From NCBI GenBank assembly GCA_965207585.1, contig CBDBMT010000002.1, positions 244,255-308,254 on the forward strand: a stretch of 64,000 bases of DNA, given 5' to 3'. The DNA comes from Dehalococcoidia bacterium (lineage in GTDB: Bacteria > Chloroflexota > Dehalococcoidia > Lucifugimonadales > UBA3495). The first letter of the stretch is position 1; every line of letters begins with the position of its first letter. Made by a program: the position numbers and the translations under genes. Shown one piece after another: positions 5,398-27,500 of the stretch. The notes beneath the pieces were generated by a model, which saw nothing but the letters and a program-made list of their open reading frames with translations, was not told the origin of the DNA and searched no databases.

Positions 5398-5426
5398 GGT
5401 GTGGGGTTTTCCTGGATTGCAGTTGA

Positions 5427-5814: not shown

Positions 5815-5995
5815 CCGCTTGCGGCCGAGTCGCTCGGCAGCGATGGCGACATAGGCGCAGCCAGCGAAACAGTCCAGTACGATGCCGTCCTCGGGGCAGG
5901 ACGCCTTGATGATGCGCTCGGCAAGGGCGACGGGCTCCTGGGTGGGGTAGCCAGTGCGTACACTGGACGAGTTAGGTATGTGAGGAACATCATCC
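5815..5995 (-). pseudogene. C-terminal fragment of a beta-class (DPPF-type) DNA methyltransferase, paralogous to 40246..42069
   Basis: DDVPHIPNSSSVRTGYPTQEPVALAERIIKASCPEDGIVLDCFAGCAYVAIAAERLGRK aligns with DLWLGIPATKGIERTGYPTQKPVALAERIIRASCPEDGVVLDCFAGCAYVAIAAERLGRN in the intact gene. Confidence 0.75.
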
Positions 5996-6087
5996 CATCT
6001 AAAACTTTGAAAAGGACTTGGAGGGCAGGACATACGCTTTGGCTTCTGCTCGTCCTTGGGTTTCCCATTTTTGGCCTGCGATGTTAC

Positions 6088-6129
6088 AAAAAACTCCCGC
6101 CGGTCAGTTTGGCGACGGCCCGACGGGAG
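6088..6129 (-). terminator. intrinsic-terminator-like hairpin followed by U6 (minus-strand reading)
   Basis: Stem CTCCCGCCGG...CCGACGGGAG has one mismatch. The adjacent A6 on the plus strand (6088-6093) reads as T6 after the stem on the minus strand. Confidence 0.45.
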
Positions 6130-6148
6130 TTGAAGGAGGAATGTGCTG

Positions 6149-6358
6149 ATGAATGACTTGTGCCGAATCTTGGTAGCGGTTTTTGGATCGCTCGCTGCGT
6201 TTTTCACTGCAGCAAGCATTGTGATCTTTTTGTATTGTCGCAACTCGGACTTCACTCAATTGACGACTGAGCAGTGCGTTGCGCTTCTAGTGCTGTGTCT
6301 TGCGGTGGCTGCGATATGCGCCGTAACCGTCGTACTTCTCGTACGAGCAGGTAAATAG
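6149..6358 (+). CDS. small two-TM membrane protein, hypothetical
   Basis: GGAGGA at 6135-6140 lies 8 nt before the ATG at 6149. Two hydrophobic helices. Sits in an AT-richer insert inside the decayed methyltransferase. Confidence 0.4.
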   Translation: MNDLCRILVAVFGSLAAFFTAASIVIFLYCRNSDFTQLTTEQCVALLVLCLAVAAICAVTVVLLVRAGK

Positions 6359-7803: not shown

Positions 7804-9612
7804 TCAGCGGCGTCGGAACTCCTGCTCCAGTCGCAGTGTTGAGATCTGGACGATGGTGGGCCGACCGTGGGGACAGTGGTGGGGCTCGGGCGTTTCGGCC
7901 AACTGGTCGATGACGGCCTGCATCTCATCCACGCTCAGCGTGTCGCCGGCGCGGGTTGCCGAGTGGCATGCGATGGTGGCGGCGATGGCTTGTTGCGGTG
8001 AGCTGATTATTTGCTCTGCGGCGAATTCGTCCAGCAGTTGCTGTAGGACTCGTTCCGGTCCTGGGCAGTGCGGTGCTGTCAGCGGTAAGGGAATGGCGTT
8101 GATCTGCCATGTTAGTTCCCCGAGATGCTGTAGGCTGAACCCCTGTTGCTCGATGAGCGTGAGGTGTTCCACCAGTGCCTCGTGCTGAAACGCGTCGAGA
8201 GTGGCTTGCTCGGGAAGCATCAATTTCTGTGAGTTGTCTGGTTGGTTCGTGCGTTGTCGGAACACGCGGTCGAAGATGACCCGTTCGTGAGCGGCGTGCT
8301 GGTCGAGGATATGTAGTCCGCCTGGGCCTTCTGCAAGGATGAAGGTGCGCTGTGCTTGGCCGATTAGCCGCAGCTGGGGGATGGTGTCTCTGAGGTTGTG
8401 TCCGGCCTGTAGGTCAGTGGTGACGAGTGGGTCGTCTAGTTGCTGTTGACTGCGCCTTTCGCTGTCGTGTCGGGCTGCTGACGGACTGGTGTTGCCGTAG
8501 TCCAGGATGGGGCGGGTGATACCTGGTTCCGGCCTAAATCGGGCGTTGTCCGCTGGCTCCGGGCGGCGGTAGTTTCGTTGACTCGTGCTCGCGAAAGGCC
8601 GGTTGGTCGCTTGGTGGATGACGCCGTGAGCGGAGAGCGCTTCGCGAACGGCGCGCTGGATGGCGGCGAAAATCTTCGACTCGTGGCGGAAGCGAACTTC
8701 CTGCTTGGTTGGGTGCGCGTTCACGTCGACCATATCGGCGGACACCGTCAGGTGGAGCACGGCGACGGGGCGTCGGCCCATGGGCAGGGAGTTGCCGTAG
8801 CCCTGCTCGATGGCGTAGGCAAGGTTGCTGTCTTGCACCCAGCGGCCGTTGACGGTTACTGAGATGTCGTTGCGGTTGGAGCGGTGGATGTCGGTGTTGC
8901 CGACGTAGCCGGAGACATGTGCGTCGTCGGCGTCGAGCAGCACTGGCAGCATTCGAGTGGCCGTGTCGTGGCCCATGATGCTGAGTATGGTTTCCTGGAG
9001 CTTGCCGGTGCCGTTGGTGCGGAAGGTCTCGTTGCCGTCGTTGGAGTACGAGAAGCGCACATGGGGGTAGGCCATGGCGTAGCGAGCCACGACGCGCTGG
9101 GCGTGGGCGGCTTCGGTGGGTTTCGTGCGCAGGAACTTGAGTCTGGCGGGCTGGTTGCCGAACAGGTTCTCGACGGTGATGTTGGCGCCTGCGGCGCTGC
9201 CGGCAGGCCGTGGTGGTCCTTCGCGTATGCCGTACGTGATCCGGTACTGGGTGGCGGCTGCGTCGTTGGCGTTGTACGTCACGCACGTGAGCTTTGAAAC
9301 GGCGGCGATTGACGGCAGGGCTTCGCCCCGGAATCCCAGGGTGTCTATGCTGAGTAGGTCTTCGACGTTGCGCAGCTTTGAGGTGGCGTGTCTCGAGAAT
9401 GCGGTCTCGACCTGATGTGCCGGTATGCCGGTGCCGTTGTCCTGCACTCTGATGAGCTTGGTGCCGCCCTCTTCGATGGCGACTGATATTTTGGTGGCGC
9501 CGGCGTCGATGGCGTTTTCGACCAGTTCCTTTACGACGGAGGCGGGGCGTTCGACGACTTCGCCGGCGGCTATTTGGGCGGCAACGTTGGGAGGTAGAAT
9601 TTGTATGTCCAT
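7804..9612 (-). CDS. mutL: DNA mismatch repair protein MutL
   Basis: N-terminal GHKL ATPase signature MDIQILPPNVAAQIAAGEVVERPASVVKELVENAIDAG. C-terminal ...CPHGRPT... endonuclease-type block. Confidence 0.95.
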   Translation of the reverse strand: MDIQILPPNVAAQIAAGEVVERPASVVKELVENAIDAGATKISVAIEEGGTKLIRVQDNGTGIPAHQVETAFSRHATSKLRNVEDLLSIDTLGFRGEALPSIAAVSKLTCVTYNANDAAATQYRITYGIREGPPRPAGSAAGANITVENLFGNQPARLKFLRTKPTEAAHAQRVVARYAMAYPHVRFSYSNDGNETFRTNGTGKLQETILSIMGHDTATRMLPVLLDADDAHVSGYVGNTDIHRSNRNDISVTVNGRWVQDSNLAYAIEQGYGNSLPMGRRPVAVLHLTVSADMVDVNAHPTKQEVRFRHESKIFAAIQRAVREALSAHGVIHQATNRPFASTSQRNYRRPEPADNARFRPEPGITRPILDYGNTSPSAARHDSERRSQQQLDDPLVTTDLQAGHNLRDTIPQLRLIGQAQRTFILAEGPGGLHILDQHAAHERVIFDRVFRQRTNQPDNSQKLMLPEQATLDAFQHEALVEHLTLIEQQGFSLQHLGELTWQINAIPLPLTAPHCPGPERVLQQLLDEFAAEQIISSPQQAIAATIACHSATRAGDTLSVDEMQAVIDQLAETPEPHHCPHGRPTIVQISTLRLEQEFRRR

Positions 9613-9704: not shown

Positions 9705-10035
9705 GTTTCAATCCCCACCCGCCCTTCAGGGCGGGTGCTACCGGCGGATTGGAAGCCGTCGCGCTCGCGATTTTGAAGTTTCAATCCTCACCCGCCCGAA
9801 AGGGCGGGTGCTACTGGGTTCCAATCGGCACCGACCCCCTGACCCGCAGGATTGTTTCAATCCTCACCCGCCCGAAAGGGCGGGTGCTACGTCAGGTACC
9901 GGCGGCTTATGGCCGCACTGCAGGCAGTTTCAATCCTCACCCGCCCGAAAGGGCGGGTGCTACACCCGGTGCTGGAGATCGTAACCGTGCCTGTGCCAGT
10001 TTCAATCCTCACCCGCCCGAAAGGGCGGGTGCTAC
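9705..10035 (-). CRISPR. CRISPR array, 5 repeats of 37 nt with 4 spacers (36, 39, 36, 35 nt); type I-C-like repeat
   Basis: Repeats at 9705, 9778, 9854, 9927 and 9999: GTTTCAATCCTCACCCGCCCGAAAGGGCGGGTGCTAC. The minus-strand reading ends in ATTGAAAC. The 9705 repeat is degenerate (trailer end), and the leader is on the cas2 side. Confidence 0.95.
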
Positions 10036-10188: not shown

Positions 10189-10488
10189 TCACACCAGCAG
10201 CGGACCGCTGAAGTCGATCACATTGCTGATTCCGTATTCCTCGACCCGGTGCTTGCGCCCGCCGGGAATCTTGTAGAACCGGATGCTGTCTTCGTTCTCG
10301 TCCATGATGTCGAGCAGATTGGCCTTCATTTCGATGAAAGTCGTGTCGCTGACCGTGCATTCAAAAACTGACTTCTGGACCCGCTGGCCGTAGTCTTCAC
10401 AAGTTTTCGCTACCCGCCGCAGGCGCGCACGGCCCTCGGTAGTTTCGGTACTGACGTCGTATGTAACCAGAACCCACATTGCGTTCAC
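10189..10488 (-). CDS. cas2: CRISPR-associated endoribonuclease Cas2
   Basis: MWVLVTYDVSTETTEGRARLRRVAKTCEDYGQRVQKSVFEC is a typical Cas2 N-terminus. Overlaps the cas1 stop by 4 nt. Confidence 0.9.
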   Translation of the reverse strand: MNAMWVLVTYDVSTETTEGRARLRRVAKTCEDYGQRVQKSVFECTVSDTTFIEMKANLLDIMDENEDSIRFYKIPGGRKHRVEEYGISNVIDFSGPLLV

Positions 10489-11519
10489 CGGGACACGAAG
10501 GCGGGATAATGTTGCAGGTCTCCACGCAGATGACGTGCCAGCAATCGGGCTTGCAGATGCGGCAAAAGCCCAATGGGCGTCTTGCGTTGCGCCACTGGAT
10601 GCGTGATCTCTTCCGCCTTCCGTTTCTGATAATTCGTTAGCAATGTCTTTCGACCTTCCTCGGTGAGAGAGACACCACCGCCCAGGCTGGTTTCGAAGTG
10701 CTCGGAGTTCAGTTGGCGCCGGTTGATCAGCGTCAACGCCAAGCGGTCGGCCAAGAATGACCGAAACTCCTCCATCAGGTCAAGCGCGAGTGATGGGCGA
10801 CCAGGGCGGACCGCATGGAGAAAACCGATTTGGGGGTCCAAGCCGACACCTTCGCAAGCGGCTTGGCATTCCGCCCGGACCAGCGCGTAAAGGAACGACA
10901 GCATGGCGTTGATGGGGTCCCGAGGTGGGCGCCTGTTTCTGCCGTCGAATTTGAAAGCCGGATCCGGCGCGCGTATCAGGTGGTCGAAAGCTGAGAAGTA
11001 CACCGCGCCGGCGCGACCCTCGTTGCCGCGGATCTCGTTCAGGGTGCCTGCCTTCTCCAAGTCACCGATGGTGTCCGCCATGTACTTTGCGGCTTGCCGC
11101 AGCTCGGCCTCTGATTCAGTTTCCCGGGTCTGACGCGCCTCTCTCATCAGGAGTGAGCGGCCGTTCTGCACCTTGGCAGCCACGATGTTTCGGGCGATGG
11201 CGGCGGAGCGTTCGTGGTCCTGATACGCTTCATGCTGCGCCAGCCGGAGCAGTACGTTTCCCGAAGTCGGACCTACTACTTTAGCCCGAAAGCGACCGCT
11301 GCGGCTGAGAAAGACCAGATCGCGCTGGTCTTCGGCGCATTGCGCCATGGCGGCCGGGGACACGCTTACTCTGCCGAAGCAGACCACGGCTCCCAGGTGG
11401 TGCACCGGGACCTGTAGGAGCGTCGCGCCGTCCGCTTCGACTTTGAGAGTGCGGTGGTCGACGTGTACGTAGGCCCCTTGGGTGGAGACGTACAGGGTGT
11501 TGAGTAGTTCGTGGGCCAC
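10485..11519 (-). CDS. cas1: CRISPR-associated endonuclease Cas1 (I-C type)
   Basis: LLNTLYVSTQGAYVHVDHRTLKVE... is Cas1-like. A GTG at 11519 is preceded by GAGGA, while the longer ORF to 11603 adds a non-Cas1-like basic extension. Confidence 0.88.
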   Translation of the reverse strand: MAHELLNTLYVSTQGAYVHVDHRTLKVEADGATLLQVPVHHLGAVVCFGRVSVSPAAMAQCAEDQRDLVFLSRSGRFRAKVVGPTSGNVLLRLAQHEAYQDHERSAAIARNIVAAKVQNGRSLLMREARQTRETESEAELRQAAKYMADTIGDLEKAGTLNEIRGNEGRAGAVYFSAFDHLIRAPDPAFKFDGRNRRPPRDPINAMLSFLYALVRAECQAACEGVGLDPQIGFLHAVRPGRPSLALDLMEEFRSFLADRLALTLINRRQLNSEHFETSLGGGVSLTEEGRKTLLTNYQKRKAEEITHPVAQRKTPIGLLPHLQARLLARHLRGDLQHYPAFVSR

Positions 11520-11571
11520 GGTGTTTTCCTCGGTGGGAGGCGGGCGTCTTTTGGCCCATTGCCGACACGGA

Positions 11572-12219
11572 TTACGAGATGGGCTCTTCCATTGTGATTG
11601 CAAACAACTGAGCTTGGTACCGCCGGTTTCTTTCCTGTTCTGACACCACGAACGGCAAGCAGGATTCTACCAGGGAGCAATTTCGGCACCGAGCATCGGC
11701 TACCGCTGGCGGTAGCGTGGAGGCATTCATCATCTGCCGGATTGCCGACACTGCCTTTTTTACTTGCTCACGCAGCGAGGATGTGAATTCGACCTCGCGT
11801 CGTTGCCGGGAGGAGAAGTGATACACGGCGCCCGTTGGAACCTCGACGGCGAGCATTTCTTCAAGGCAAACGGCTTGGCCGCAGAGCTGGAGGTCGGCGT
11901 GGTTGCCGTGGCGTGCCGGGCCGTGCTTGTATTCCACGGGGTACGGAGTGGTGCCGTGGAACTCCACGACGTCAGCTTTACCCAGCAATCGCAGTGAGTC
12001 GGACCACAGCGGCACGGCGTATTCGGTACGTACGCCGTCGATTGTTGCAACGCCGGATTGATCGACCCTCTCGTGTACTGCGTTGCCGCGGAGTGTGTAC
12101 ACGTTCTCGTCGTAGGTCTGCTCCCGGTGAATCAGTGCGCACTGTCGCGGGCAGTAACTGTAATGCTCCAGCATCGACAGCAGGATGTAGTCGTCAAAGT
12201 CCGACACCGGTGCCTCCAT
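11572..12219 (-). CDS. cas4: CRISPR-associated exonuclease Cas4
   Basis: YSYCPRQCALIH and CRNCSLVESC give the four-Cys cluster, together with a RecB-like core. GGAGGA lies 5 nt before the ATG at 12219. Confidence 0.9.
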   Translation of the reverse strand: MEAPVSDFDDYILLSMLEHYSYCPRQCALIHREQTYDENVYTLRGNAVHERVDQSGVATIDGVRTEYAVPLWSDSLRLLGKADVVEFHGTTPYPVEYKHGPARHGNHADLQLCGQAVCLEEMLAVEVPTGAVYHFSSRQRREVEFTSSLREQVKKAVSAIRQMMNASTLPPAVADARCRNCSLVESCLPFVVSEQERNRRYQAQLFAITMEEPIS

Positions 12220-12324
12220 CGTTGTCCTCCACATTGGCAGTATGTCGACGGGTCAGGCGTCAATCCTGGCGACGCTGACTCCCGTTGGCAGGTCGGTTTC
12301 ATCCAGCGTCACCGAGTAGTCGGC

Positions 12325-12361
12325 GTTTCAATCCTCGCCCGGTCAACGGACCGGGCGCAAG
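12325..12361 (-). repeat. solitary divergent CRISPR repeat in the cas7-cas4 intergenic region
   Basis: GTTTCAATCCTCGCCCGGTCAACGGACCGGGCGCAAG. The first 12 nt are identical to the array repeat. The stem is replaced by a different self-complementary pair, CGCCCGGTC/GACCGGGCG. Confidence 0.75.
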
Positions 12362-12447
12362 TGTTGTGAATCGGCGAGTTGATGGGCAACTCTCTTTTCG
12401 CTTCGCGGTTGCGTGTCTCCCTGTCTGTTTCAGGGAAATTGGGATGT

Positions 12448-13344
12448 TTAGCATTCCAGTTGGGTGAGTTTGACGCCGTTTGGCAGATCATCAGCGTCAA
12501 TGGAAATCGTGTAGTCAGTGAATCGGCGCGGCGCGGTCGTTTCATCTTTCCGTTGCACGGCCAGCCGCTCAAAAAGTCGGTGGACCGGGGCGTTGCCCAG
12601 CGGGCTCTCATGGGAAAAGATGTACAGCCCTCGACAGGCCATCAGGCCCCGGGACGAGGATCGGTCAATGTCCCACATATTGGTCAACGCGGTCCAGAGC
12701 AAGGCAAGGTCGTCGGAGTCCACACCCGTTTGTTTGGCGAAGTGTGGGTTGAAAAATCCGTAGCCTTGGTAAAGGCCATAGGGCACGGTGGACTTGCGGC
12801 CCAGTGTGCCGTGGGTGGGCGCTTCTTGGTCGTTTTCCTCATTTGCGGCCCCGCGCTCTCCGCGGTTTTCCAAAGCGACCCTGGCGATGGTCGAATCCAT
12901 GGCGAGAATGGGGTCTATCGAGCGGGAGAACGTTAGCTGCACTGGGCCGCGCACCTGACCGGCGTTGCGCTCGCGCATACTCATCACAGCGCCGAACATC
13001 CGAATGTCGTAGAATTGTTCGCACAACCACGGTTGGGCCTGCCGCGGCGTGGGGGCGTCGTTGTCGCCGCGCTTTTCATCGAAGACACGGCCCCGGGTCT
13101 CGGTGAGGTAGGTTTCCCGTTGGACGTAAATCTTGTACCGGGATTCATCCCCGCGGGCGACGTGCACGTAGTCCCTGACCTTGCGTTTGAGGGACACGTC
13201 CGTGACGATGCCCTGCATGGTTTCGGGATCCATCCGGGGTTGGTTGCCGGCGTCCGGGTCACCGTTGGGGTTGCCGTCCTGCACGTCGAACAGGATGATG
13301 AAATCGTGGCGTCGGCTGACGTCACAGTGGGGTTGTGTGCTCAT
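12448..13344 (-). CDS. cas7: type I-C Cascade subunit Cas7 (Csd2)
   Basis: FDVQDGNPNGDPDAGNQPRMDPETMQGIVTDVSLKRKVRDY is the Csd2 hallmark block. Confidence 0.9.
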   Translation of the reverse strand: MSTQPHCDVSRRHDFIILFDVQDGNPNGDPDAGNQPRMDPETMQGIVTDVSLKRKVRDYVHVARGDESRYKIYVQRETYLTETRGRVFDEKRGDNDAPTPRQAQPWLCEQFYDIRMFGAVMSMRERNAGQVRGPVQLTFSRSIDPILAMDSTIARVALENRGERGAANEENDQEAPTHGTLGRKSTVPYGLYQGYGFFNPHFAKQTGVDSDDLALLWTALTNMWDIDRSSSRGLMACRGLYIFSHESPLGNAPVHRLFERLAVQRKDETTAPRRFTDYTISIDADDLPNGVKLTQLEC

Positions 13345-13365: not shown

Positions 13366-15069
13366 TTATTCCGCGTCGGGTTCGTTGCCATTATCATCCC
13401 GCTGCGCGTTCCGCCGCGCGGTGGCTTCTTGGGCCTGCCGGCTGTTATCGGCACGTTGGTGGTAGTAGCCGAGGGCGAAGAGTCCCTGCTGTTCCAGGTT
13501 CAGCGTCCTTGGGAACCCGTCCAGGCTGGACATGATTTCTTCCATGTCGGCCTCAATGGCTACGCGTGCGCTCCGCCGGTCCCGGTTCAGCGTGTGCAGA
13601 TGTGCCCGCACTCCTTTGAGCAGAAGTGGGAACACTGCTCCGGGCGCGGTGGACGCCGTACCGTAGTACCGGTCGGCAATGGTTGCGTTGACGTTGCGTA
13701 TCGCCGTGGTTTGGGCGCGCTCGAGCACGTTGAAGAGCCGCCCGCAGAGGTAGCCTGGATCCGAGTTCTCTCTGTCGACTTCCACCATGTGGTCCTCCCG
13801 ATGGTCGTATTGCTGCCTCTGGCTGAGCAGCGCCAGCTTGATCAGAGCGGCGCGTGGTCTGGTTACTCTGCGTTCCGCTTGGCAGCGGCGGATCGCCTGC
13901 TGGAGTATTTGGCTTGGCACGGGCTCTCCGCCGAACGCCGTTTTGATGAGGGCACGGGGCGTCGTAACCGGGAGGTCTTTGCGATCCCTGACAGTAGCGT
14001 TGGCCAGCGACGTGACCCCGTAGTATCGGTTCTCGTTGTCATAGCCGGGTGCGACCTGCTGGCGTTGGAACCACAGCGCTAGGTTTTCTTTGACATTCCT
14101 CACGGTGGTGTTGAGCCAGTCGCGGACCACCGCTCGTCCGCCGGCCGCGGACAGCGACAGCGCGTAGAAGTCGGCTTCGTCAAGGTCGGCCCAGCGTCCG
14201 CGCCGCGCTGATTCGAGCAAGGCTTGGACGTGCTGCGGGTCCGGTGTGGACATCATCGTGAGGAAGTCGAAGTCGTGAGTTTCTCGGGTCCAGAAGACGA
14301 AGGCGCCGTTGCCGGTTCTGAACCGGGTGGAGTCGCCGGACAGCAGGTCGTTGAGCCCCCGGGTGAAGCCTTCCGCACATTCCTGGCAGATCGGAGCTAC
14401 TTGCGAAGCTTGAAGGCCATAGGACTCGAAGGCGTCGCTGTTCGCCGAGATGATGCTGGTGCCGGAGGTTTGCCCGCCCGGGATGCCCTTGACCTTGGAT
14501 TGCAGACGCTCCAGTACAGGGCGATTTTCGCCGCAGACCAGGCATTGCATCGTCGCGCCGTCCGGTTCGTTGATGGCGGCCCAGAACCGTTGCACCGCCG
14601 GGTTGTCGATCACGTACCGGCCTTCAACCTGGAACGTGATGATACCGCCGTTGTCAAAATCGTCTTCGAGTTCGAGATTTTGCAAGGGCTCGTTCTTGAG
14701 GAAGTGCAGAACCGCCAAGACGTCCGGTTCTTCGGTTTCGGTGCCGCAGCGCTCCACCAAATCGACGTAGGCGGCGTGTGCTTTCTGGGCTCGGTCAAGC
14801 TGTTTTGCGCTCTTGGGAAGCCCCAGCGTGTAGTCGGACGGGCTGGCCAACAGCAATGGCCGGATGCCCGACGTGCGCTGCACCTGTGGCAGTAGCCTCC
14901 GCCTTCCTCGCCGGTTGCGGGGTGTCGAAGGGTCGCTCACAATCAGCCGCCGGCTGCGGCACTCGCCGTTGGGATCCAGCGGAATAACGTAGCGCAGAGC
15001 GCCCTCGGCGTAGAGTTTGGGCGCTGCCGTTTCGTTCCTTTGGGCGTATTCGACCAGTTTGTCCAGCAT
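13366..15069 (-). CDS. cas8c: type I-C large subunit Cas8c (Csd1)
   Basis: Position between cas5 and cas7, size of 567 aa, and Csd1-like N-terminus MLDKLVEYAQR. An internal GGAGG-ATG at 13788 could give a Cas11c-like product. Confidence 0.85.
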   Translation of the reverse strand: MLDKLVEYAQRNETAAPKLYAEGALRYVIPLDPNGECRSRRLIVSDPSTPRNRRGRRRLLPQVQRTSGIRPLLLASPSDYTLGLPKSAKQLDRAQKAHAAYVDLVERCGTETEEPDVLAVLHFLKNEPLQNLELEDDFDNGGIITFQVEGRYVIDNPAVQRFWAAINEPDGATMQCLVCGENRPVLERLQSKVKGIPGGQTSGTSIISANSDAFESYGLQASQVAPICQECAEGFTRGLNDLLSGDSTRFRTGNGAFVFWTRETHDFDFLTMMSTPDPQHVQALLESARRGRWADLDEADFYALSLSAAGGRAVVRDWLNTTVRNVKENLALWFQRQQVAPGYDNENRYYGVTSLANATVRDRKDLPVTTPRALIKTAFGGEPVPSQILQQAIRRCQAERRVTRPRAALIKLALLSQRQQYDHREDHMVEVDRENSDPGYLCGRLFNVLERAQTTAIRNVNATIADRYYGTASTAPGAVFPLLLKGVRAHLHTLNRDRRSARVAIEADMEEIMSSLDGFPRTLNLEQQGLFALGYYHQRADNSRQAQEATARRNAQRDDNGNEPDAE

Positions 15070-15070: not shown

Positions 15071-15727
15071 TCACCCCTCCTGCTCCGACGAGTGGGGTAT
15101 ACGCAATACGCCCTGCTCCAGCCGCGCGTTGAAGAATCTCGGCGTGGCGGCGCCGTTGCTCTGGGGATCGTAGGTCAAGTCCAGCAGCATGCTGCCCAAT
15201 TCTTCGGTAACGTCGATGGGGGTTTCCGTTCCGTCCGGTACGGAAAACCTGGCCCAGAACTCGCGGCAGCCCAGGTAGGGAATGGCGAAGCATCGCCCGG
15301 AGTTCACCCTGCGCCGGAATTGGTCACGGTACTTGGCAGGGTCTTCGGATCCGTTCTTAACCACGATTTGCGCCTTGATGATGTAAGCGACGTCGCGGAG
15401 GGCAAGGGTGTGCCTTTGAGCTCGGTTCCTGCTGTCGGCAGCGTCAAAACCGCCGCCTTCTCGTTGCCACCGCCGCGCGGTTTGAACGGTCTGGCGCGAG
15501 CGGATTTCGTTGCGGACGACGGACGCGTACCGGATGGGCTCCAGCACTTGGATTTCCTCAATCTGCCAGGTGAACTCCGGCTTCCAGCAAATCGCTTCCA
15601 GCACTCCTTTTGCCGCCGTTGGCGTCATCATCGGGTACGAGACGCGCTCCACTTTCATCTCCGGTCTGGTGAAGCAGGCGAATTCGCCCTCAACTTTGAC
15701 CGTCAGCGGTGGGTAATCTGGTTTCAT
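15071..15727 (-). CDS. cas5: type I-C Cas5 (Cas5d, pre-crRNA processing subunit)
   Basis: KVEGEFACFTRPEMKVERVSYPMMTPTAAKGVLEAICWKPEFTWQIEEIQVL is a canonical Cas5d N-terminus. Confidence 0.9.
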   Translation of the reverse strand: MKPDYPPLTVKVEGEFACFTRPEMKVERVSYPMMTPTAAKGVLEAICWKPEFTWQIEEIQVLEPIRYASVVRNEIRSRQTVQTARRWQREGGGFDAADSRNRAQRHTLALRDVAYIIKAQIVVKNGSEDPAKYRDQFRRRVNSGRCFAIPYLGCREFWARFSVPDGTETPIDVTEELGSMLLDLTYDPQSNGAATPRFFNARLEQGVLRIPHSSEQEG

Positions 15728-16257
15728 GCTTGCTGGTTCCCTCGTGCCTTATCTGCCACGTAGTTGACGGCTCTCGTCCCGGCGAAATAGGCGAAGTAAG
15801 CGCTTTCGAGCCTTTTGCCTTGGAGGTATCGCCAATCCTCGAAGTCTCGATTGTGGTCCAGTACGAACTCCTTGAAGGTCATCATCGCTGTCTCCGGTGC
15901 TATGGTCCACTTTTTCCATGACTCTTCAATCTCTTGCTTGGTGTCGCGTGGTAGGTCTTCATATAGTCTTTCCAGGTCGTGGATATGGCGAAACTTTCTT
16001 CCAAGCGCTTGGTAGATCCCCTTGAGTGCGCATTCAAGCGCAAAAGCCTGCATGGTGCAGTTGATGATCCCTTTCCCGACTGTGACTTCGTCCTCTGTCG
16101 TGGCGGCGTTTCCTACTGTGCCGATCTCCGTGGTGCAGACTCGGTAGTACTCAAGCGTACCCGCTATCGACTTGGAGATGAAAGTCATGTCCGCCTCTCC
16201 GTCCGGCATGATGTCGAACCTGATTGTGGTCTCTCCTGCGGGTTGTTGGGTAGCCAT
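15724..16257 (-). CDS. HEPN-domain-like protein embedded in the cas operon (177 aa)
   Basis: The ATG at 16257 lies 23 nt after the cas3 stop, and its TGA overlaps the cas5 ATG (ATGA). ALECALKGIYQALGRKFRHIHDLERLYEDL fits the Rx4-6H spacing, and a distal DWRY is present. The block is shared with the HEPN part of 51863..52741. Confidence 0.6.
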   Translation of the reverse strand: MATQQPAGETTIRFDIMPDGEADMTFISKSIAGTLEYYRVCTTEIGTVGNAATTEDEVTVGKGIINCTMQAFALECALKGIYQALGRKFRHIHDLERLYEDLPRDTKQEIEESWKKWTIAPETAMMTFKEFVLDHNRDFEDWRYLQGKRLESAYFAYFAGTRAVNYVADKARGNQQA

Positions 16258-16280
16258 GTTTACCTCTCTGTTCTGGCCGC

Positions 16281-18449
16281 TCATACGATCAACTGGTCGG
16301 GGTCTATCGTTTTGACGCCTCCGATGCCGGTGACCGCGTTGTAGGTGCCTCTCCATTCGTAGAGTCCCGGCATGATTTCATCGAGCAAACCAGTTCGCTC
16401 CTTTTCGAGTGCTTCCCCTCTGTAAAGTGACACTGACCACGGTTGTACCTGCCGGAGCAGTTGACGGGCGTTTTTGTTGCCTTCGCGCAATACGGCTACG
16501 GCCTTGAGAACTTTCGGCCATTCTTCGGGTTTGTTGGCGGCCTTGAATGCCTCTTCTCTGGTGACGACCGCGGAGACGGTATCGTCGTCAATCATCTTGA
16601 ACCGCTTGGCAACTTCGGGGTAGTCGAATGCTTTGCGCCCTTCCTGCACCTGCTGGGCGTCCGTGTCGACGTCTTGGTAAAGTCGGCGGAAATACTCCGC
16701 TACCAAGTCGGGATCATCCAGGTCGCTGTGACCGTCGCTGCGCATCTCGACGGTTCTACCCGTGGCCGTCCGGTAGGTGCCGCGTGGCAAGGTTGCCTTC
16801 TCTGCTTGGAATACTATCACCTGTCCTTCGTCCAGCCTTCCGTTGCGGTTGCAGCGACCCGCGGCTTGGATGATGCTGTCCATCGGACCGACAGCGCGCA
16901 GTACCATGGGGAAGTCGATGTCGACGCCGGCTTCCACCACCTGCGTCGAAACTACGCGACAACTCTCCCCGTTGTCCAGACGCTGGCGTATCTCTGCGAT
17001 GACCGCCTCGCGGTGCCTTCCGCACAACAGCGTTGAGAGGTGCAGAGCGTTTTGTTCGTTCAACGCTTCCAGCAGCGCCAAGGCGTCCTTTTTCGTGTTC
17101 ACTACCGCCAATGCTTGCGGCGTTTCGCGCATGATGTCGGCAACTTGGTTCCACGCCAGTGTCGGGTCGGTTCGCCACTCGTAGTGGACTCTTTTCAAAC
17201 TCTGAAAGTGCCTTTCCGGCGACGGCACAATGTCATGGGCGTCCACGTCGGCAAAGGGCTTTATCGCCTGGAATGCCGGCTGGGTGGCGGTGGACAGCAC
17301 CACCGTGGTGCCGTAGTTTTCCGAAAGGTCGCGTAGCCCGTCCAAGATGGGCCCCAGCAACGTAGGCGGCAGCGCCTGGGCTTCGTCCAGGATGATGACG
17401 CTTCTGGCCAGGTTATGCAGCTTGCGGGTGGAACTGGTGCGGTTTGAGAACAGGCTGTTGAAAAGCTGGACGGTGGTGGTGACCACAACGGGCGCGTCCC
17501 AGTTTTCACTGGCCAGCCTGGCCCAGATCGCTTTCGTGTCGTACTCGTCGGACTCGTCGCCCTCCGCTGACGAGTGATGTTCCAGCACGGCCTCGTCCCC
17601 GAGGAATTCTCGGTACACGCTGGCCGTCTGCTGGGTGATTGAAATGAACGGGACCGCGACGATCACCCGGTCCAGGCCGTGGCTTACGGCGTGGCGTAGG
17701 GCGAAGCCCATCCCTGACAGGGTCTTGCCGCCGCCGGTAGGGACAGCCAGGCGAAAAATGCCGGGAGGATTTTGGGCGGCGGCCAAGCAGGCTTCGTACA
17801 CTTCAGAGCGTACCTCGTTGACCTTGCCTGCCGGCGCCCCGGTTTGGACGTTCTGGTGTCGCCTGCTGAATCTCTGCCACAGGTCCGCCAAACCGACGCT
17901 TGGCCCGCGTTGTGCCGCTTGCTGCGGGTTGAAGTGCGTCTCGGTGTCCAAGTAGTCGGCGTCCACCAGTGCCGAAAACACCATCCTCAGCCACAGCTCG
18001 GCACGGTGCTGGTTGTTGACCCACGGTGGTGGCTTTATTGGAGTCTGCGGTTCCAGTTGGGGCATGGTCTTGCGTGCGTAGTCGATGGCTTGTCCCGTCG
18101 CGGGGTTGCTGTCTTTCTCGTTGATCCACTCTCTGCAATGCCTCATTGCTTGCAGGCCGCCGTGATGTCCTTGGACCAGCAGTGCCAATGGTTCCAGATG
18201 ACGCTGAATCGCCAGTTTGGCGCCTGCGCCTTTGTGGTCCGGTCCGCGTCGGCGCTCTCCGGCAAGGTACCGTTGGAACTCGGGGTTGAACTTGCCCACG
18301 TCGTGCCACAGGCCGGCGTAGTATCCGGCGTCGTGGCTGTCGAAGGGTTCGCAGAACTCTCCGGCGATTTTCGCCACCGCAGTCAGGTGGTCGACCAATC
18401 CATGGCAGATGCCGTCCTCGTTGGCGGAGTGGGCGTGAAATTCAATCAT
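16281..18449 (-). CDS. cas3: CRISPR-associated helicase/nuclease Cas3 (HD + SF2 helicase)
   Basis: HD motifs HAHS...GLWHDVGKFNPEFQ. Walker A PTGGGKT and DEAQ box IILDEAQAL. Confidence 0.93.
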   Translation of the reverse strand: MIEFHAHSANEDGICHGLVDHLTAVAKIAGEFCEPFDSHDAGYYAGLWHDVGKFNPEFQRYLAGERRRGPDHKGAGAKLAIQRHLEPLALLVQGHHGGLQAMRHCREWINEKDSNPATGQAIDYARKTMPQLEPQTPIKPPPWVNNQHRAELWLRMVFSALVDADYLDTETHFNPQQAAQRGPSVGLADLWQRFSRRHQNVQTGAPAGKVNEVRSEVYEACLAAAQNPPGIFRLAVPTGGGKTLSGMGFALRHAVSHGLDRVIVAVPFISITQQTASVYREFLGDEAVLEHHSSAEGDESDEYDTKAIWARLASENWDAPVVVTTTVQLFNSLFSNRTSSTRKLHNLARSVIILDEAQALPPTLLGPILDGLRDLSENYGTTVVLSTATQPAFQAIKPFADVDAHDIVPSPERHFQSLKRVHYEWRTDPTLAWNQVADIMRETPQALAVVNTKKDALALLEALNEQNALHLSTLLCGRHREAVIAEIRQRLDNGESCRVVSTQVVEAGVDIDFPMVLRAVGPMDSIIQAAGRCNRNGRLDEGQVIVFQAEKATLPRGTYRTATGRTVEMRSDGHSDLDDPDLVAEYFRRLYQDVDTDAQQVQEGRKAFDYPEVAKRFKMIDDDTVSAVVTREEAFKAANKPEEWPKVLKAVAVLREGNKNARQLLRQVQPWSVSLYRGEALEKERTGLLDEIMPGLYEWRGTYNAVTGIGGVKTIDPDQLIV

Positions 18450-18858
18450 CGTTTCGCTCTGTCCGGGATAGGCTCGCAGCTGTGTCCGACGTTGCGGCGG
18501 CCGAGTTCCCCGCCGCTGGGCCCGTTGTTGAGGATCTGATTCTGCCTGCGAGGGTTCCTACCGTCGTGCCGACCATGGTTTCTGTCGCTGATACGCCCGT
18601 GATGACTTCCTGGAGCAGGTCGTCGGTGAGAACCGAGGCGGTCAGGTGGTCGACCACCAGTTCGTCCAGTCGCCCAGTTTCGATTTCCGGCAAGTCGCAG
18701 CGGTTGCCGTCCCTTTCCTCGGAATTGGGGCAAACGTAGTGTGGAGCGTGGTCAACGCCGCCGCCCAAGATTGTCATGGGAGAGCGGCGACTCTGGCATT
18801 TGGCCAGGCCGCCCAGTACGGGTTGGGCGTCTCGCGCAGTCACGGTGTCGGTGTTCAC
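18442..18858 (-). pseudogene. fragment resembling the zinc-ribbon/coiled-coil region of a large serine recombinase
   Basis: LGGLAKCQSRR...HYVCPNSEERDGNRCDLPEIETGRLDELVVDHL follows the GLLxC...YYxC...C...LE pattern with Cys losses. No resolvase domain is present. Confidence 0.45.
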
Positions 18859-21580: not shown

Positions 21581-24500
21581 TCAGCGGGCGTTGAGCCGGC
21601 CCTCCGCCCAGCTTCCCTGCAAGGGAAGGGTAGCGTCCCCGACCAGGTTGCTGAGTTCGACGTAGATCCGGTCGTTGTGCTCGAAGTAGGCGTCCGGGCT
21701 GATGTGCACGTCGAGCTCCTTCGAGACTTCCCCGGCGGCGAAGGTGATGGTGCCGCTGGTCCCGCCGTCATCGTCCTGGAAGTCCTCGCCGGGCCAGAGG
21801 TGCGGGCTGAAGGTTCCCAGCTCGTAGTCCACGGTGACCGTTCCCGCCGCGGCCTGGCTCAGGACGACCGGGAATACCAGCTTCTCTCCCGCCCGAGCCT
21901 TGTCCGGGGCGTCGCTGATGGTGAGGCGCGGCCCGGACGGCTCGTCGTCGTCCTTGACGACCACGGTGACCGAAGGCGGACCGACGATCTCGTAACCGCT
22001 GCTCGGGACTATGCGGGCCGTGATCGACCCGTCGGGCTCGTCGTCGTGGTCCGGCGCCGGCGAGATGCGGAACGAAGCGTGGGCCGGGCTGACCGGAACG
22101 GTCAATTGCCTGGTGCCGGTCGGGACCCCGAAGTCGCCCGCCGCCGTTACCTGCACGGAGACCGTCTCATCCTTGTACCCGTGGGGATTGATGCTGACGG
22201 TGAAAATCACCGAGCTATCTTCTTCGACCGAAGTCTTGCTGGCCCGAATCTTGACCTTGGGCAGGTCGTCGTCAATGATGGTGACGCTGGCCTTGCTGGG
22301 GGAGCCTACCCGGTAGCCGTTGCTCGCCTTGATGGAGAACGACATGGAATAGTCAGCTTCGTCGTAGTTGTTGTCGTCGCTGGGCTGGGTGAACGTGGCG
22401 CTCCCCCCGGTGACGGTTTCCTTCCGGTCGACGTTGATAAGTCCGGGGACTTCGCTCTTCAACGTGACCACCAGCGACTGGCCGTCCGCCAGCGGCGGCG
22501 TAGCGGTGAGCGTGAAGGTCGCGTCTTCGCCTTCGTTGGTGTCCGGGCCGCCGGTGATGGTGATCACCGGGTTGTTGACGGGCGTCGCCTCGTCGTCGTT
22601 CACCGCGACGCTGGCCTCGGCCGGATCCCCCACCCGGTAGCCGTAGCCGGCCTTGACCGTGGCGGTGACCGCGCCGTCCGGCTCGTCCACGTTGTCGTCG
22701 GTCGTGGCGACGGTGAAGTCGTGGGAGCTGACCAGCGGGACGCTGACGGTTCGAGCGCCGGTGCTCACGCCGAACTCCCCGCTGGCTCCAATGGTCACGG
22801 ACACCGACAGCCAGTTGTTGGACGGCGCCGGGTTTGCCGTGAGCGTGAAGGTCGCGTCTCCGCCTTCCGTAACGGCGGCGCCGCCCGTGATGGTGATGAC
22901 GGGACCGTCGTTGTCGGCCACGTCGACGCTGTCCGAGGACGGATTGCCCACGCCGTAGCCGCTGCCCGGCTGGACCGTCGCGGTGATGGTCCCGCCCTGG
23001 GATTGGACGTTGTCGTCGGTGGTGCCGACACTGAGGGTCGCGGAGCCGCCGGTGGGGTCGGACACGGCCACTGCGGTCGCGCCCTGCGTCGTGGACACCA
23101 GGTAGCCCTCGCCGGTGTCGATGGTGACCGTCACCGAGCCGTCTTCCTCGTCCAATTCGTCGTTGGTGGTGGCCACCGTCAGCGTGGCGTAGCCCGCGGT
23201 CGGGATGGTCACCGTCTGCTGTCCCGTGGCGGCCCCGTAGTCGCCGCTCTGCGACACCGTGACGCTCACGTCCAGGTCCGCATCCGGCGCCGGGTTTGCC
23301 GTCACCGTGAAGCTGGCGTCCCCGCCCTCGGTCACGTCGCCGTCGGAGGTGACGCTCACCACCGGGAGCGACGTGTTGGGCGTCGGCGTCTCGAAGTCCA
23401 CCGGGAAGGTCTGCGCCGTCGCGCCCGCGGCCAGGGTCCTCACGATGAGCTGGCCCAGATTGGTGCTCCCGGCCAGCACGAAGACCGCGTAGTGCGACTT
23501 GGGGTCGAGGCCCGTGATCTGGTGCTCCGTCTCCGTGGTGGTGGCCCACTGGACCACCGGGATGCCCGCGAAGGACTCGTGCCAGCCCACCGTGTACTGC
23601 GTGCCATCCCCCTGGGGCTTCCAGGCGACGGTCATCGTGGTGTCGGAGACCTCCTTCAGCTGGAGCCTGGGCGGCGGCGGCAGGTCGTTGTTGGCGATGT
23701 AGACGCTGGCGTGGCTGCGGAACTTGTTCAGCCGGTAGCCCTCGCCGAAGGTCACGCTCGCGCCGAGCATCCCGTTGGAGGCCCAGCTGACGTCGTCGAC
23801 GGTGGGGATCGTGAACGAGGCGCTGCCGCCGGTGGGCACGTTGACCGTGCGCGCGCCCAGGTGCGTGCCGTCCACCACGGAGCCGGCGGACGGGCCGGCC
23901 ACGCGCACCCTCACGTCCAGCGGCGCGTCGGGCGCGGGCTCCACGCTGACCGTGAAGACCGCGTCCTCGCCCTCGGTGATCGTGCCGCTGGCCGCGCTGA
24001 TCGACACCTCCGGCACCCGCTCCACGATGACCGAGGTGGGCTCGGCCTGCACCGGCGAGCCCGCCGACAGCGTGGTGAAGCGGATCACGGGGCTGGCGGT
24101 CGACAACTGCGTCGCGCCGTGGTCGGCGTAGTACACCACCGCCCGGTACTCGGTGTCCGGCTCCAGGTGGCGGATGTTCCAGGCCGGGTCGTTGGGCTCC
24201 GCCCCGAACCAGGCCTCCTCGGCCGGGACGCCCGGGAAGGGCGAGGTGGTCGACCAGTAGCGCACCTCGTAGCCCTCGGCCCCGACCACCCGCGGCCAGC
24301 TCAGGTCGATGCCCGTGTCCGAGAGGTTGGCGTAGGACACGTCGCCCACGCGCTCCACCACCGGGTCCGGCAGGTCGCCCAGCAGCCGCTGGCAGCCCAC
24401 GCAGGCGCCCAGCGTGCGGTAGAAGCTGAAATTCTTGGTGCGCACCACTTTAGGCGGCGTCTCCGTCGAGATCTGGTTGTCGCTGCGTTCGTACAGCGCG

Positions 24501-27500
24501 AAGCCCTCGAAGTCGAAGGTCACGTTGCCGGCGAAGTTGTCGCCGACGTTGATCTCGATCTGGATCGGCGTGCGGCTGACGGTGGCCGAGCCGGCGGCGC
24601 CGGTTTCCGGGTAGGCGCGGAAGGTGTGGAGGGGATCGGCGGCGGGGCTGGTCAGCCAGACCCGGTAGGACCGGAAGTACTCCGTCGTGCCGGTATTCAA
24701 CGGCGCCTGGTTGGCGAAGTTGGCGGTGATATGGATGCGCTTGTTCTGGTCCGCCGGCGGGTCGTTGGTGAGGCGCACCCAGAAGTAGTGCGCCTTGCGC
24801 CCCGTGTTCAGCGACCGCGGGAAGGCCAGCGACAGGCCGCCGTCCTGGATGGACGTCCAGGTGGCCCCGTCGTCGATGGAGAACTCCAGGCCCTGCTCCC
24901 ACTCGTCGTCGTCCCGGATCACCACCGGCACCTCCACCACCGGGAAGGCGACGTACCCGTTGTCCGGCCCCGTGTTGGCGCCGTGGTCCTGCTGTTCGGC
25001 CGTGTGGATCAGCTGCGTGAGGTGGTCGAAGGCGTCGCTGTCCTGGCCGGCGGCGACGCTCACCGGACGCCACTTGTTGGGGTCGTGCTCGTAGATGGAC
25101 TGGACCGCGAAGGGGCAGCCGTCGTGGCGGTCCAGCAGCGGGCCGGCGGTGCTCCCGTAACCGATGTTCATCCCGCTCTGGCGCGGCACGTACACGATGG
25201 GGTCGCCGAGGTTGAAACGGTCTCGACTCCCGGTGTGGCACATCAGCCGGTCCCGGTCCGGGCCGCCCGGCCCCATGTAGCCGCCGAAGTTGCTGAGCGG
25301 CTCCGTCACCTGGTCGGTGACGTAGAAGTGCCGGCGCTGCTTGGGGTCCACCGCCCGCCACTGGTAGGTGACCACCGGGCCGCCCTCCGTCAGCGTGATC
25401 GTGGGCGGCGGGTCGTGCCTGGTGTAGTTGGCGACCACCCAGCCGGTGTCGCAGCTGTTGCCCGACACCGTGCCCGCGCAGGTGCGGAACTGCACGAAGG
25501 GCTCCGCTGCGCCCAGGTTGAGGCCGATCTTGAGCGCCTCGGAATGGGTGCTCCAGCTGGTGGCGGGCGGGTTGTTCCGCCAGTAACGGTGGCCGTCGCC
25601 GATGCTCCAGCCCTCCGCCAAGGGCAGGCCTTGAATTCGTTCGGAGTTCGACGCGGTGGCGCGCAGCGTGTTCGTGCCGCTGAGGATTGACGACGCGTCC
25701 ATAATCACCACCCAGTAGGTGGTGTTCGGCTCCAGCTCCAGGCCCGCGCCGTCCCCCGCATAGGTGAAGGTGTAGGTCTGCTCCGTGCTCGACACCTGTA
25801 TGGAGGGGGTCGCCAGCGTGGCCAGTTCCGTGTTCCAGTCCGGCGCTCCATTGCGGTCGGCCATGACTTTGACGCGCAGAGCATTGCCGATGTTGGAAGC
25901 GCTGACCTGGACAAACGACAGATCGACGCTGGTCAGGCGGTAGTGGCCGCCGTTGTTGCCCGTCGTGAACGACTGGGCGCGGTCAGGCCTCTGACTGCCC
26001 GTGAGGTCGTGCGCGCCGCCGTCCGGCATGTCGAGGTTGCTGAGCACCGCCGGCTCCTGGGACGGCGCGTTCAGCGTGGTTGCCACCCGGAACACCGGCG
26101 AGATGCCGTAGAACGCGTGCTGCTGGGCGCTGGACACGCGGTTCCAGTCGATGGGGCCCGTGTCCCCGGACTGGGCCCAGAAGCGTCCCCGCCCGACGTT
26201 GCCGCTGTTGCCCAGATGGTCCGTGCCGTGCTTCGTCCCGGCGGTCATGGTGCCGGTCCACGGCCAGTCCGCATCCGTGTCCCGCTCGCCGGTCTCGAAC
26301 CGGCGGTCCGACAGCTCCCAGTTCTCCCAGGTGTTGGACCAGAAGCCCGCGTTGTTGGCCGCGACGCGCTGCCCGTTCAGCCACCAGATGGGCGCGTCCG
26401 GGTGCCCGGCGTTGTTGGGATTGGTGCGGGTGTGGTCCCGGGCGTCCACCGCCGCGGTGGAGCCCACCACCAGGAACTGGTCGGCGTAGGGCCGGATGGC
26501 GGCGTGCCCCTCCCGGGCCGCGTCCCGCACGTGGGCGTCGTAGTCGTCGATGCTGGCGGAAGTGGCGTCGCGCCAGTCGTCGGTGATGAACAGCAGCCGG
26601 AACGTGCCGCCGCTGGCCACCCCGGGCGGCTTCAGCGGCCAGTCGAAGGGCACGGTGTAGGAACCGTCCTGGTTGCGCCTCAGCGCGTTAACCTCGCCGA
26701 CGATATGTATCTTCCGGGACTGGCTTAAGCTGGTCCATGAGCCGCCGCCGCGGTTCCGGTACAGGGCGGTGTCGGAGATGCTCCAGCCCTCCGCGCTCCC
26801 GGCGTCCTCGGCGTCCGACGCGGTGTTCTGGATGTTGTTCGTGCCGGCAGGAGCGTTTCCGATCCCGGCCAGCACCACCCAGTAGGTGGTGTCCGGCTCG
26901 AGCTGGAGACCCGCCTGCGTGAAGCTGTTCACGCCGGAGGCAATCGTGCCGGGAACCGTCAGGTCGGCGACCTTCGCGCCCGGTTCTCCGCTGCTGTCGC
27001 TGTGGACGGCCGCACTCAGCTTCGAAGCCAGATCCCCGGCGGTGATCGACGGGAACGAGAAGTCGACGGCGGTCAGGGTGTACCCGTCGGCGTTGCTGCC
27101 CGTCGTGAACGCCTGGGCGTGGTCATGCGACTGGAATGAGCCGGTGGCGGTGTTCGCCTGCCTGAAGTTGCTCACCAGGAGAGTAGGTTCATCGTCCTCC
27201 ACCCTGACGGTCGCCGTCGTCAACGTGCTGAGGTCGTATGCCGCCCCATCCACCAGGGTCACCGTGACCGAGCCGTCCGGCTCGCTCACGTCGTCGTCGG
27301 TCGTGGTGATCGTCAGCGTCGCCGACCCGCTGGTCGGGATCGTGACGCTGGTGGGCAGCGTGCCGAAGCCGAAGTCGCCGGAGGTGGTCACGGTGACGCT
27401 GACCGGCAGGTCGGCCGACGGGGCGGGGGTCGCCGTCAGCGTGAAGGTGGCGCTGCCGCCCTCGGTGACGGCCCTGCCGCCCGTGATGCTCACCACCGGC

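Follow-up and report, generated by a model that had tools for sequence, protein, structure and literature searches.

A probable HEPN-T gene between cas3 and cas5 of a Dehalococcoidia type I-C CRISPR-cas operon

Among CRISPR systems, types III and VI are known to employ HEPN ribonucleases (RNases) as ancillary effectors. In the literature that we searched, we found no description of a HEPN gene within a type I-C interference operon, and the accessory genes described there belonged overwhelmingly to type III systems. Here, we describe such a gene in a 64,000-nucleotide (nt) stretch of contig CBDBMT010000002.1 from a Dehalococcoidia bacterium, referred to as the window, in which an open reading frame (ORF) for a protein of 177 amino acids (aa) lies between cas3 and cas5c of a type I-C operon. 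The original prediction for this stretch proposed a HEPN-like protein encoded by an extra gene that is coupled to cas5 and belongs to the interference operon. Both proposals held up: profile relatives, the AlphaFold (AF2) fold and the Foldseek hits all point to HEPN, and the 4-nt overlap with cas5 was also found in two other loci.

The closest described class is that of the AF0298-type HEPN-T proteins, which retain the arginine of the motif, lack its canonical histidine, and carry an Ex3[KR] motif as well as a second, strongly conserved histidine N-terminal to the motif (PMC3710099). Anantharaman et al. (2013) suggested that these residues jointly provide a metal-independent, alternative RNase site (section 6 and Table 1 of PMC3710099). 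AbiV was listed together with AF0298 as a HEPN protein with a shifted histidine (PMC3710099). Stand-alone versions of AF0298-type proteins also occur in defense and restriction-modification (R-M) neighborhoods, and "solo" HEPN proteins of the abortive infection (Abi) type can conceal RNA antitoxins, as reported for AbiV (bioRxiv 10.1101/2024.05.05.592566) and AbiF (reviewed in PMC12737573).

The 177-aa protein is a single-domain member of the AF0298/TT1696-like HEPN-T class. It shares a single all-alpha HEPN domain and the Ex3K motif with AF0298 (2hsb), TT1696 (1ufb), ST0689 (1wol) and TM0613 (1o3u), which typify the HEPN-T family at the periphery of PF05168, and with AF0298-type proteins also the retained arginine, the missing canonical histidine and the second histidine N-terminal to the arginine. 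However, it is longer (177 aa as opposed to ~120-130 aa) with helical inserts between core helices 2 and 3/4, has an extra conserved H135-x2-D-F-x2-W-R-Y block, lacks a minimal nucleotidyltransferase (MNT) partner, and is encoded in a cas operon. Csm6/Csx1 and Cas13 are likewise HEPN proteins whose genes lie in CRISPR-cas loci, of types III and VI, but the window protein has neither a CARF/SAVED sensor, nor a second HEPN domain, nor the canonical Rx4-6H motif. Its host system is of type I, and such systems produce no cyclic-oligoadenylate signal. PrrC from the EcoprrI type Ic R-M operon offers a parallel, as there too a HEPN gene is inserted within a DNA-targeting defense operon, possibly following the same second-line logic. 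PrrC differs in its N-terminal ABC-ATPase domain, its canonical Rx4-6H motif and the experimentally demonstrated restraint by the R-M complex, whereas the window protein carries no regulatory domain and has homologues that stand alone. By analogy, the protein may also be compared with AbiV and AbiF of type III toxin-antitoxin systems with an RNA antitoxin, which are small dimeric HEPN proteins acting as solo anti-phage RNases. The AbiV and AbiF models gave no sequence match to the window protein, and, with 23-42 nt upstream and an overlap downstream, the HEPN genes in I-C loci, unlike those systems, have no non-coding room beside them for an antitoxin RNA.

We consider it very likely that the 177-aa protein belongs to the HEPN superfamily. 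The protein itself matched Pfam HEPN (PF05168) with 20.1 bits (E=7e-4; cut-off, 22 bits) over residues 72-112 only. The NCBIfam scan gave no match, and PADLOC gave only a weak match to a candidate family, PDC-M28A (E=6e-4), for which we found no publication in the literature searched. The window proteins have neither names nor accessions on record. Close homologues are rare: a collection of 5.8 billion proteins contained only 14, which were 44-61% identical. Their profile retrieved 459 representatives from the exhaustive library at E<=1e-3, almost all of them single-domain proteins of 150-200 aa. Among 70 sampled profile relatives, 54 matched PF05168 (E<=0.01; best, 2.4e-8), and the family profile aligned to TT1696 (1ufb) across the ExxxK...H segment (E=0.02). 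This was the only direct sequence match to the protein data bank (PDB); a match of the single sequence to CoREST was rejected as spurious.

The AF2 model built from the 70-sequence alignment was all-alpha with a predicted local distance difference test (pLDDT) score of 88.9 and a predicted template modeling (pTM) score of 0.86. Its helices span residues 24-41, 55-84, 95-134 (several short ones) and 154-176, which matches the HEPN superfamily fold, an all-alpha domain whose core of four helices has an insert separating helices 2 and 3. The best Foldseek matches in the PDB were ST0689 (1wol), followed by AF0298 (2hsb) as the second, TM0613 (1o3u) and 4nqf, all of which are HEPN proteins. The best viral fold match was annotated as "HEPN domain-containing protein" (probability 1.0, E=1.2e-3). 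We also considered a Cas11-like small subunit, which was ruled out by the HEPN homology and by the absence of the gene from other I-C loci, and a phage origin, for which IMG/VR yielded no relative by pattern and tblastn searches and PHROG no match.

The conserved residues, counted over the 70 aligned relatives with a mean identity of 22%, place the active-site candidates differently from the original prediction, which had read R87-x5-H93 as the Rx4-6H motif of HEPN proteins. The string is literally present, but its arginine is not conserved: R87 is usually G across the alignment, and the neighboring R90 is usually P. In contrast, H93 is invariant (70/70; codon 15981-15979) and is followed by D/N94 (64/70), L95 (67/70) and L98 (69/70). 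Upstream, E75 (70/70; codon 16035-16033) and K79 (69/70; codon 16023-16021) make up the Ex3[KR] motif. The WRY block, which the original prediction had called "distal", holds the true HEPN arginine, R143 (70/70; codon 15831-15829), along with H135 (57/70; codon 15855-15853), D138 (51/70), F139 (67/70), W142 (67/70) and Y144 (69/70). A histidine at five to seven residues after R143 occurs in only 4/70 relatives, and the window protein has K/R/L there, so that the canonical Rx4-6H motif is absent. A kept R143 without the canonical histidine, together with the invariant H93 and the frequent H135, is the residue pattern of AF0298-type HEPN-T proteins. Judged by the alignment, H93 is the "second, N-terminal histidine" of that class. 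E75-x3-K79, H93-D-L and H135-x2-D-F-x2-W-R143-Y are thus predicted to form an RNase site, with catalysis as a putative function. On sequence grounds, the protein represents a small, previously unnamed HEPN-T subfamily of the known alternative-site class, with an E/K/H/H/R/Y constellation.

The similarity noticed between FRHIHDLE in the window protein and YRRIHDLE in the fusion of a nucleotidyltransferase (NTase) with a HEPN domain elsewhere in the window is real. In addition to this xHDL block, the fusion carries a canonical R-x6-H (RYEGTGFH) where the window protein has its WRY block. Lying 36 kb from the cas operon and having a HEPN half of its own, it represents a separate module of the MNT-HEPN type.

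The operon in which the gene resides is a canonical type I-C operon, as had been proposed, with all seven genes from cas3 to cas2 recognized by Pfam and NCBIfam (Table 1). The gene order is cas3-HEPN-cas5c-cas8c-cas7-cas4-cas1-cas2, followed by an array of five repeats, so the I-C system is complete. The array repeat is typical of type I-C and ends in ATTGAAAC. The ORF (16257..15724, minus strand) translates exactly into the protein originally quoted; its ATG at 16257 lies 23 nt past the cas3 TGA (16283-16281), and its TGA shares the ATGA at 15727-15724 with the cas5c ATG. A longer candidate ORF of 210 aa (15724..16356) begins at an in-frame upstream ATG inside cas3, but since M1 is invariant in the homologue alignment, we place the start at 16257. 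We found no terminator-like sites on the minus strand between cas3 and cas5 and no promoter-like or terminator-like site within the 23-nt spacer, which is too short for a promoter or an antitoxin RNA.

The history of the HEPN gene differs from that of its flanking cas genes. Compared with the related locus L001, the HEPN protein is 61% identical, whereas Cas3, Cas5, Cas8 and Cas7 are 85%, 89%, 92% and 86% identical, respectively. In 150-nt windows, nucleotide identity to L001 is 85-92% from cas3 to cas2 but falls from ~88-90% to 50-65% in most of the HEPN gene. The stretch of low identity runs from the cas3 stop to the cas5 start and so coincides exactly with the gene borders. Codons ~13-87 form an island of 77-80% nucleotide identity. 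The synonymous divergence (dS) from L001 is saturated in the HEPN gene (>1.3), as opposed to 0.40-0.52 in cas3, cas5 and cas8, and therefore the gene is older than or foreign to its flanks rather than merely fast-evolving. Its GC content of 53.4% (64.6% at third codon positions) is 7 points lower than that of the cas flanks (60-62%; ~70-76% at third codon positions).

The same position between cas3 and cas5c is occupied by the homologues P0002 (L001 and L002) and P0003 (L007), each with a 42-nt upstream gap and a 4-nt stop/start overlap with cas5 (GTGA in L001, ATGA in L007). The window protein is a mosaic of these alleles. Its N-terminal half is 78% identical to P0002, with a 5-residue insertion in common, whereas its C-terminal half is 45% identical to P0002 and 63% to P0003. 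Moreover, P0002 is 75-76% identical to the solo proteins P0004, P0005 and P0008 but only 61% and 49% identical to the other two I-C alleles, so that by identity the I-C copies do not form one clade. The identity breaks, the mosaicism and the kinship of P0002 therefore indicate that the gene behaves like a cassette, recombining between loci and passing from one setting to another, whether I-C or not.

The gene is nevertheless maintained. The original prediction had stated that a ratio of nonsynonymous to synonymous substitutions (dN/dS) near 1 and absence from related loci would speak against it; instead, dN/dS by the Nei-Gojobori method was 0.12-0.35, and the gene recurs in two I-C loci. The individual values were 0.28 for L005/L010 (dS 0.32), 0.35 for L008/L009 (dS 0.26), 0.13 for L001/L008, and 0.12-0.23 for gene halves of the window compared with L001 and L007 where dS was measurable. 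The substitution pattern indicates that the HEPN gene is real and under purifying selection. Positive selection as the source of the local divergence was ruled out by the saturated dS and the low dN/dS, and the divergence is therefore ascribed to allele replacement or recombination.

By the survey of cas3/cas5 junctions, the gene is not a general part of type I-C systems. Scanning metagenomes with Cas5c yielded 80 loci (41-69% identity), 61 of which had a recognizable cas3 upstream of cas5, with a gap below 300 nt in 53. The ORF recurs in the two related loci described above, but none of the gap ORFs in the 61 more distant I-C loci matched the HEPN profile. There are ~22 Cas5 clusters at least 80% identical to the window Cas5, and only three I-C members of the HEPN family. 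In L097 (Cas5 86%, Cas3 79% and Cas7 84% identical), the one close relative that was read, the junction is empty, at 52 nt. Thus, the HEPN gene is neither present across I-C loci nor co-evolving with the cas genes, as a core I-C gene would be, and it is dispensable for I-C and polymorphic within a tight clade.

Other genes were found at the same junction in four loci with larger gaps. It holds an IS1595 transposase in L053 (3827-4747), a weak IS200/Y1-like transposase match in L060 (4256-4879), a MazE/AbrB antitoxin with a PIN toxin in L077 (2402-3144), and a Phd/YefM antitoxin with a PIN toxin in L085 (3881-4560). The PIN genes of L077 and L085 stop 3-6 nt before cas5. These VapBC-like pairs therefore resemble the HEPN gene in insertion point, orientation, tight junction with cas5 and RNase-type toxin, but they carry a recognizable protein antitoxin, whereas the HEPN gene has none. 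Selfish or toxin modules thus seem to have landed repeatedly at the cas3/cas5 junction.

All examples come from metagenome assemblies of uncultured Chloroflexota, among which only three loci have the I-C arrangement; the two named host genomes are Chloroflexota metagenome-assembled genomes, one of them from Dehalococcoidia. Nine family members have a readable context, of which three lie at the I-C junction and six stand alone outside CRISPR loci, several of them next to genes for defense or of mobile elements. P0004 and P0008 are preceded by a helix-turn-helix (HTH) gene and a Uma2-family gene, with dynamin-like GTPases following P0004. P0009 and P0010 follow an HTH gene and a gene for a 474-aa tetratricopeptide repeat protein, near a HEPN_RES_NTD1-RES toxin and type IV secretion system genes. 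P0007 follows a DNA methylase and lies near an AAA_15/DUF4276 pair, and P0006 is surrounded by metabolic genes. Remoter relatives are also solo, amid transposases or adjoining a sensor kinase. As originally predicted, there is no nucleotidyltransferase partner: no NTase gene adjoins the HEPN gene in the 12 contexts read, and the only NTase pair seen, in L011, is ~1.8 kb off, beyond an unrelated dehydrogenase gene. An MNT-HEPN (HepT/MntA) toxin-antitoxin system was ruled out by these 12 contexts and by the absence of the Rx4HxY motif. As a separate observation, P0008 (L009:8001-8447) is C-terminally truncated or frameshifted just past the WRY block, adjoins IS66 transposase genes, and appears to be a decaying copy.

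A second unusual element lies in the cas7-cas4 gap (12235-12447), which is the only other strongly variable stretch between the window and L001. It contains a solitary degenerate CRISPR repeat, the psi-repeat, that matched Rfam CRISPR-DR9 over its full length with 38.3 bits (E=3.6e-6; gathering score, 45). Although its stem bases differ, the hairpin is preserved (-20.3 kcal/mol, z=-3.2). The psi-repeat shares its 3' handle, GAGGATTGAAAC, unchanged with the true repeat, and another CAGGATTGAC lies ~57 nt downstream. A comparable psi-repeat follows cas7 in L001, L002 and L007, but it was not found in L097 or in 31 other I-C loci having both cas7 and cas4. In L007, it lies just upstream of the leader and array. 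We found no psi-spacer target with a TTC protospacer-adjacent motif (PAM) across the operons. The search for the target of a CreTA-like circuit gave a 10-nt match in cas3 (17960) with GAC as the "PAM", near chance expectation. The psi-repeat may serve as a site of Cas5c processing at which the messages for interference and adaptation are separated; alternatively, it may be a regulator like CreA/CreR or a leftover from rearrangement. Beside this, the L007 locus (11848-12700) shows cas7 followed by degenerate repeats and the CRISPR array, with no cas4-cas1-cas2 in between, and this clade therefore rearranged its adaptation module relative to the array.

We lean, with modest confidence, toward the HEPN gene being an autonomous, horizontally exchanged module of the conflict or abortive-infection type, which relies on the cas transcript for its expression and whose product is a dimeric RNase or RNA binder. 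The cassette would have arrived in the cas3/cas5 junction within a narrow clade of Chloroflexota I-C loci, where different alleles would later have recombined. Having no promoter of its own, the gene would be transcribed from the cas operon, and its product would therefore be made whenever the interference genes are expressed, while ribosomes terminating on it could re-initiate at cas5c. The protein presumably dimerizes as other HEPN proteins do, with E75, K79, H93, H135 and R143 as a putative metal-independent RNase or RNA-binding site. It may act in the style of abortive infection, hitch-hiking in the cas operon and profiting from its expression like the PIN toxin-antitoxin pairs at the same junction in other I-C loci, and phage triggers or inhibitors could be encountered by the surface of its hypervariable C-terminal half. 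A role as subunit or dedicated effector of Cascade or Cas3 is improbable.

Several observations weigh against this explanation. At the level of the protein, the direct PF05168 score lies under the gathering cut-off, the PDB fold matches have non-significant E-values (0.4-2) with target-normalized TM-scores of 0.45-0.55, and RNase activity of the alternative-site HEPN class is itself a prediction. If the protein is an active RNase, it has no visible restraint. At the level of the locus, three loci have retained the position and the 4-nt overlap with cas5 although their alleles are deeply diverged and recombined. This looks like selection for some HEPN allele at that place and hints at a functional tie to cas. 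Moreover, the psi-repeat accompanies the HEPN gene in 3/3 loci and occurs in 0/32 loci without it, a co-occurrence that is suggestive of a functional link but confounded by relatedness.

Such a tie was central to the original prediction, which envisaged an RNase linked to Cascade or Cas3. In a guard or back-up version, a HEPN RNase would be held by Cas3 or Cascade and freed by an anti-CRISPR or by loss of the complex, leading to abortive infection. The location in the interference operon with translational coupling kept in three loci agrees with this scenario, as do the variable C-terminal half, which fits an arms race, and the precedent of PrrC, a HEPN protein within a type Ic R-M operon (PMC3710099); with no antitoxin or partner encoded, a Cas protein could also be the restraining partner. 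However, the closest homologues, 58% identical to the window protein and 75-76% identical to P0002, have no cas genes nearby, and the protein is therefore tolerated without Cas partners. The presence of the gene varies among near-identical I-C loci, it does not co-diverge with the cas genes, and the entire protein is one HEPN domain in the AF2 model, with no additional docking domain. With six of nine copies solo, the junction of L097 empty and no match in 61 loci, the Cascade/Cas3 link found no comparative support, and we regard the guard scenario as unlikely. Also improbable, in our view, is a non-catalytic HEPN protein that binds RNA or nucleotides and tunes the cas transcript or CRISPR RNA, possibly with the psi-repeat as its target, or a gene that simply provides cas5 with a translational "ramp". 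In its favor, the protein lacks the canonical catalytic histidine, the motif is often lost from HEPN-T domains that are fused to NTases or form pairs with them and that are regarded as binding domains (PMC3710099), solo copies are tolerated without an antitoxin, and the gene co-occurs with the psi-repeat. Yet, at a mean identity of 22%, seven polar or aromatic positions show little or no variation, which argues for a chemical site rather than a binding surface only, the Ex3K motif and the arginine are those assigned to HEPN catalysis (PMC3710099), and most I-C operons do without such a factor.

The original prediction also offered an addiction module, which requires an antitoxin, and none is visible. 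A version without a protein antitoxin would be a HEPN toxin with a Cascade-dependent antidote, for example a CreA-like psi-crRNA made from the psi-repeat, so that loss of cas is blocked. The solitary repeat at 12325-12361 is structurally intact and restricted to HEPN-bearing loci by the counts given above, toxin-antitoxin modules occupy the same junction elsewhere, and CreTA provides a precedent (PMC12737573, PMC12980059). Nonetheless, no psi-spacer match with a TTC PAM was found anywhere in the operons, repression would need a promoter that the HEPN gene does not have, neither cas genes nor repeats accompany the solo family members, and the psi-repeat of L007 could be a leftover of the rearrangement of array and adaptation module. 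This leaves the addiction module as the least probable of these explanations. Scarcely more credible is that the HEPN gene and the psi-repeat are one add-on that makes I-C defense two-tiered, with an alternative-site RNase gated by Cascade/Cas3 or by a repeat-derived RNA.

Table 1. Coordinates of the HEPN gene, the type I-C locus and related features in the window.
Feature	Coordinates	Strand	Description and basis
HEPN gene	15724..16257	minus	177 aa, single-domain HEPN-T-like; translation, conservation, AF2 model, dN/dS
cas3-HEPN spacer	16258..16280	minus	23 nt; GAGAGG Shine-Dalgarno-like (ribosome-binding-like) run
ATGA overlap of HEPN stop and cas5c start	15724..15727	minus	translational coupling
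cas3	16281..18449	minus	722 aa, HD nuclease and helicase; Pfam Cas3_HD, DEAD, Cas3-like_C_2; NCBIfam cas3_core, cas3_HD
cas5c	15071..15727	minus	218 aa; TIGR01876 Cas5c, 7.5e-44
cas8c/csd1	13366..15069	minus	567 aa; PF09709, 3e-132
cas7 (csd2)	12448..13344	minus	298 aa; PF05107, 8e-91
psi-repeat (solitary degenerate CRISPR repeat)	12325..12361	minus	in the cas7-cas4 gap, 12235-12447
cas4	11572..12234	minus	PF01930
cas1	10485..11603	minus	PF01867
cas2	10189..10488	minus	PF09827
CRISPR array	9705..10035	minus	5 repeats of 37 nt (GTAGCACCCGCCCTTTCGGGCGGGTGAGGATTGAAAC), 4 spacers of 35-39 nt; Rfam CRISPR-DR9, 50-54 bits
NTase-HEPN fusion	51863-52741	minus	292 aa; NTP_transf_2 and HEPN PF05168

Several features of the surroundings were recorded on the way. 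Directly upstream of cas3, a 138-aa ORF (18442-18858, minus strand) has a recombinase zinc-ribbon (PF13408), below the cut-off, as its only domain and looks like a fragment of a large serine recombinase, which suggests that the cas locus lies at or near a former mobile-element boundary. Similarity to L001 and L007 ends at the cas3 start. A few kb upstream of cas3, two genes encode giant fn3/Calx-beta repeat proteins of 2180 aa (21581-28123, minus strand) and 1071 aa (28709-31924, minus strand), and giant fn3/cadherin/PKD proteins likewise precede the solo copies P0009 and P0010 (L005 and L010) by a few kb. This common proximity may reflect a shared chromosomal neighborhood or coincidence. On the other side, mutL (7804-9612, minus strand) lies immediately downstream of the CRISPR array, and an N6/N4 DNA methyltransferase gene (5125-6255, minus strand) a little beyond it.

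Toxin-like genes inserted in defense operons are a known theme; the translational coupling of a HEPN gene to a type I-C operon, with allelic exchange of the cassette, did not turn up in the literature searched. A link between the HEPN gene and CRISPR function is testable and currently unsupported, and the guard role is possible but unsupported. If the two-tier reading were true, the system would be analogous to CreTA, though with a protein as the toxin, or would mirror in type I the AbiF-to-Cas13 logic of "HEPN plus guide-like RNA". The RNase would then fire when an anti-CRISPR blocks interference or when cas genes are lost, and the repeated capture of HEPN and PIN genes at the cas3/cas5 junction would be adaptive rather than accidental. 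Even on a conservative reading, the I-C cas3/cas5 junction repeatedly captures RNase-type toxins (HEPN and PIN) and insertion sequence elements, and recombination can exchange the captured gene within an operon that otherwise stays nearly constant. The HEPN-T subfamily is useful for asking whether "alternative-site" HEPN domains are real RNases, and the locus is a concrete case in which one can test the coupling that has been proposed to link adaptive immunity with modules for dormancy or suicide.

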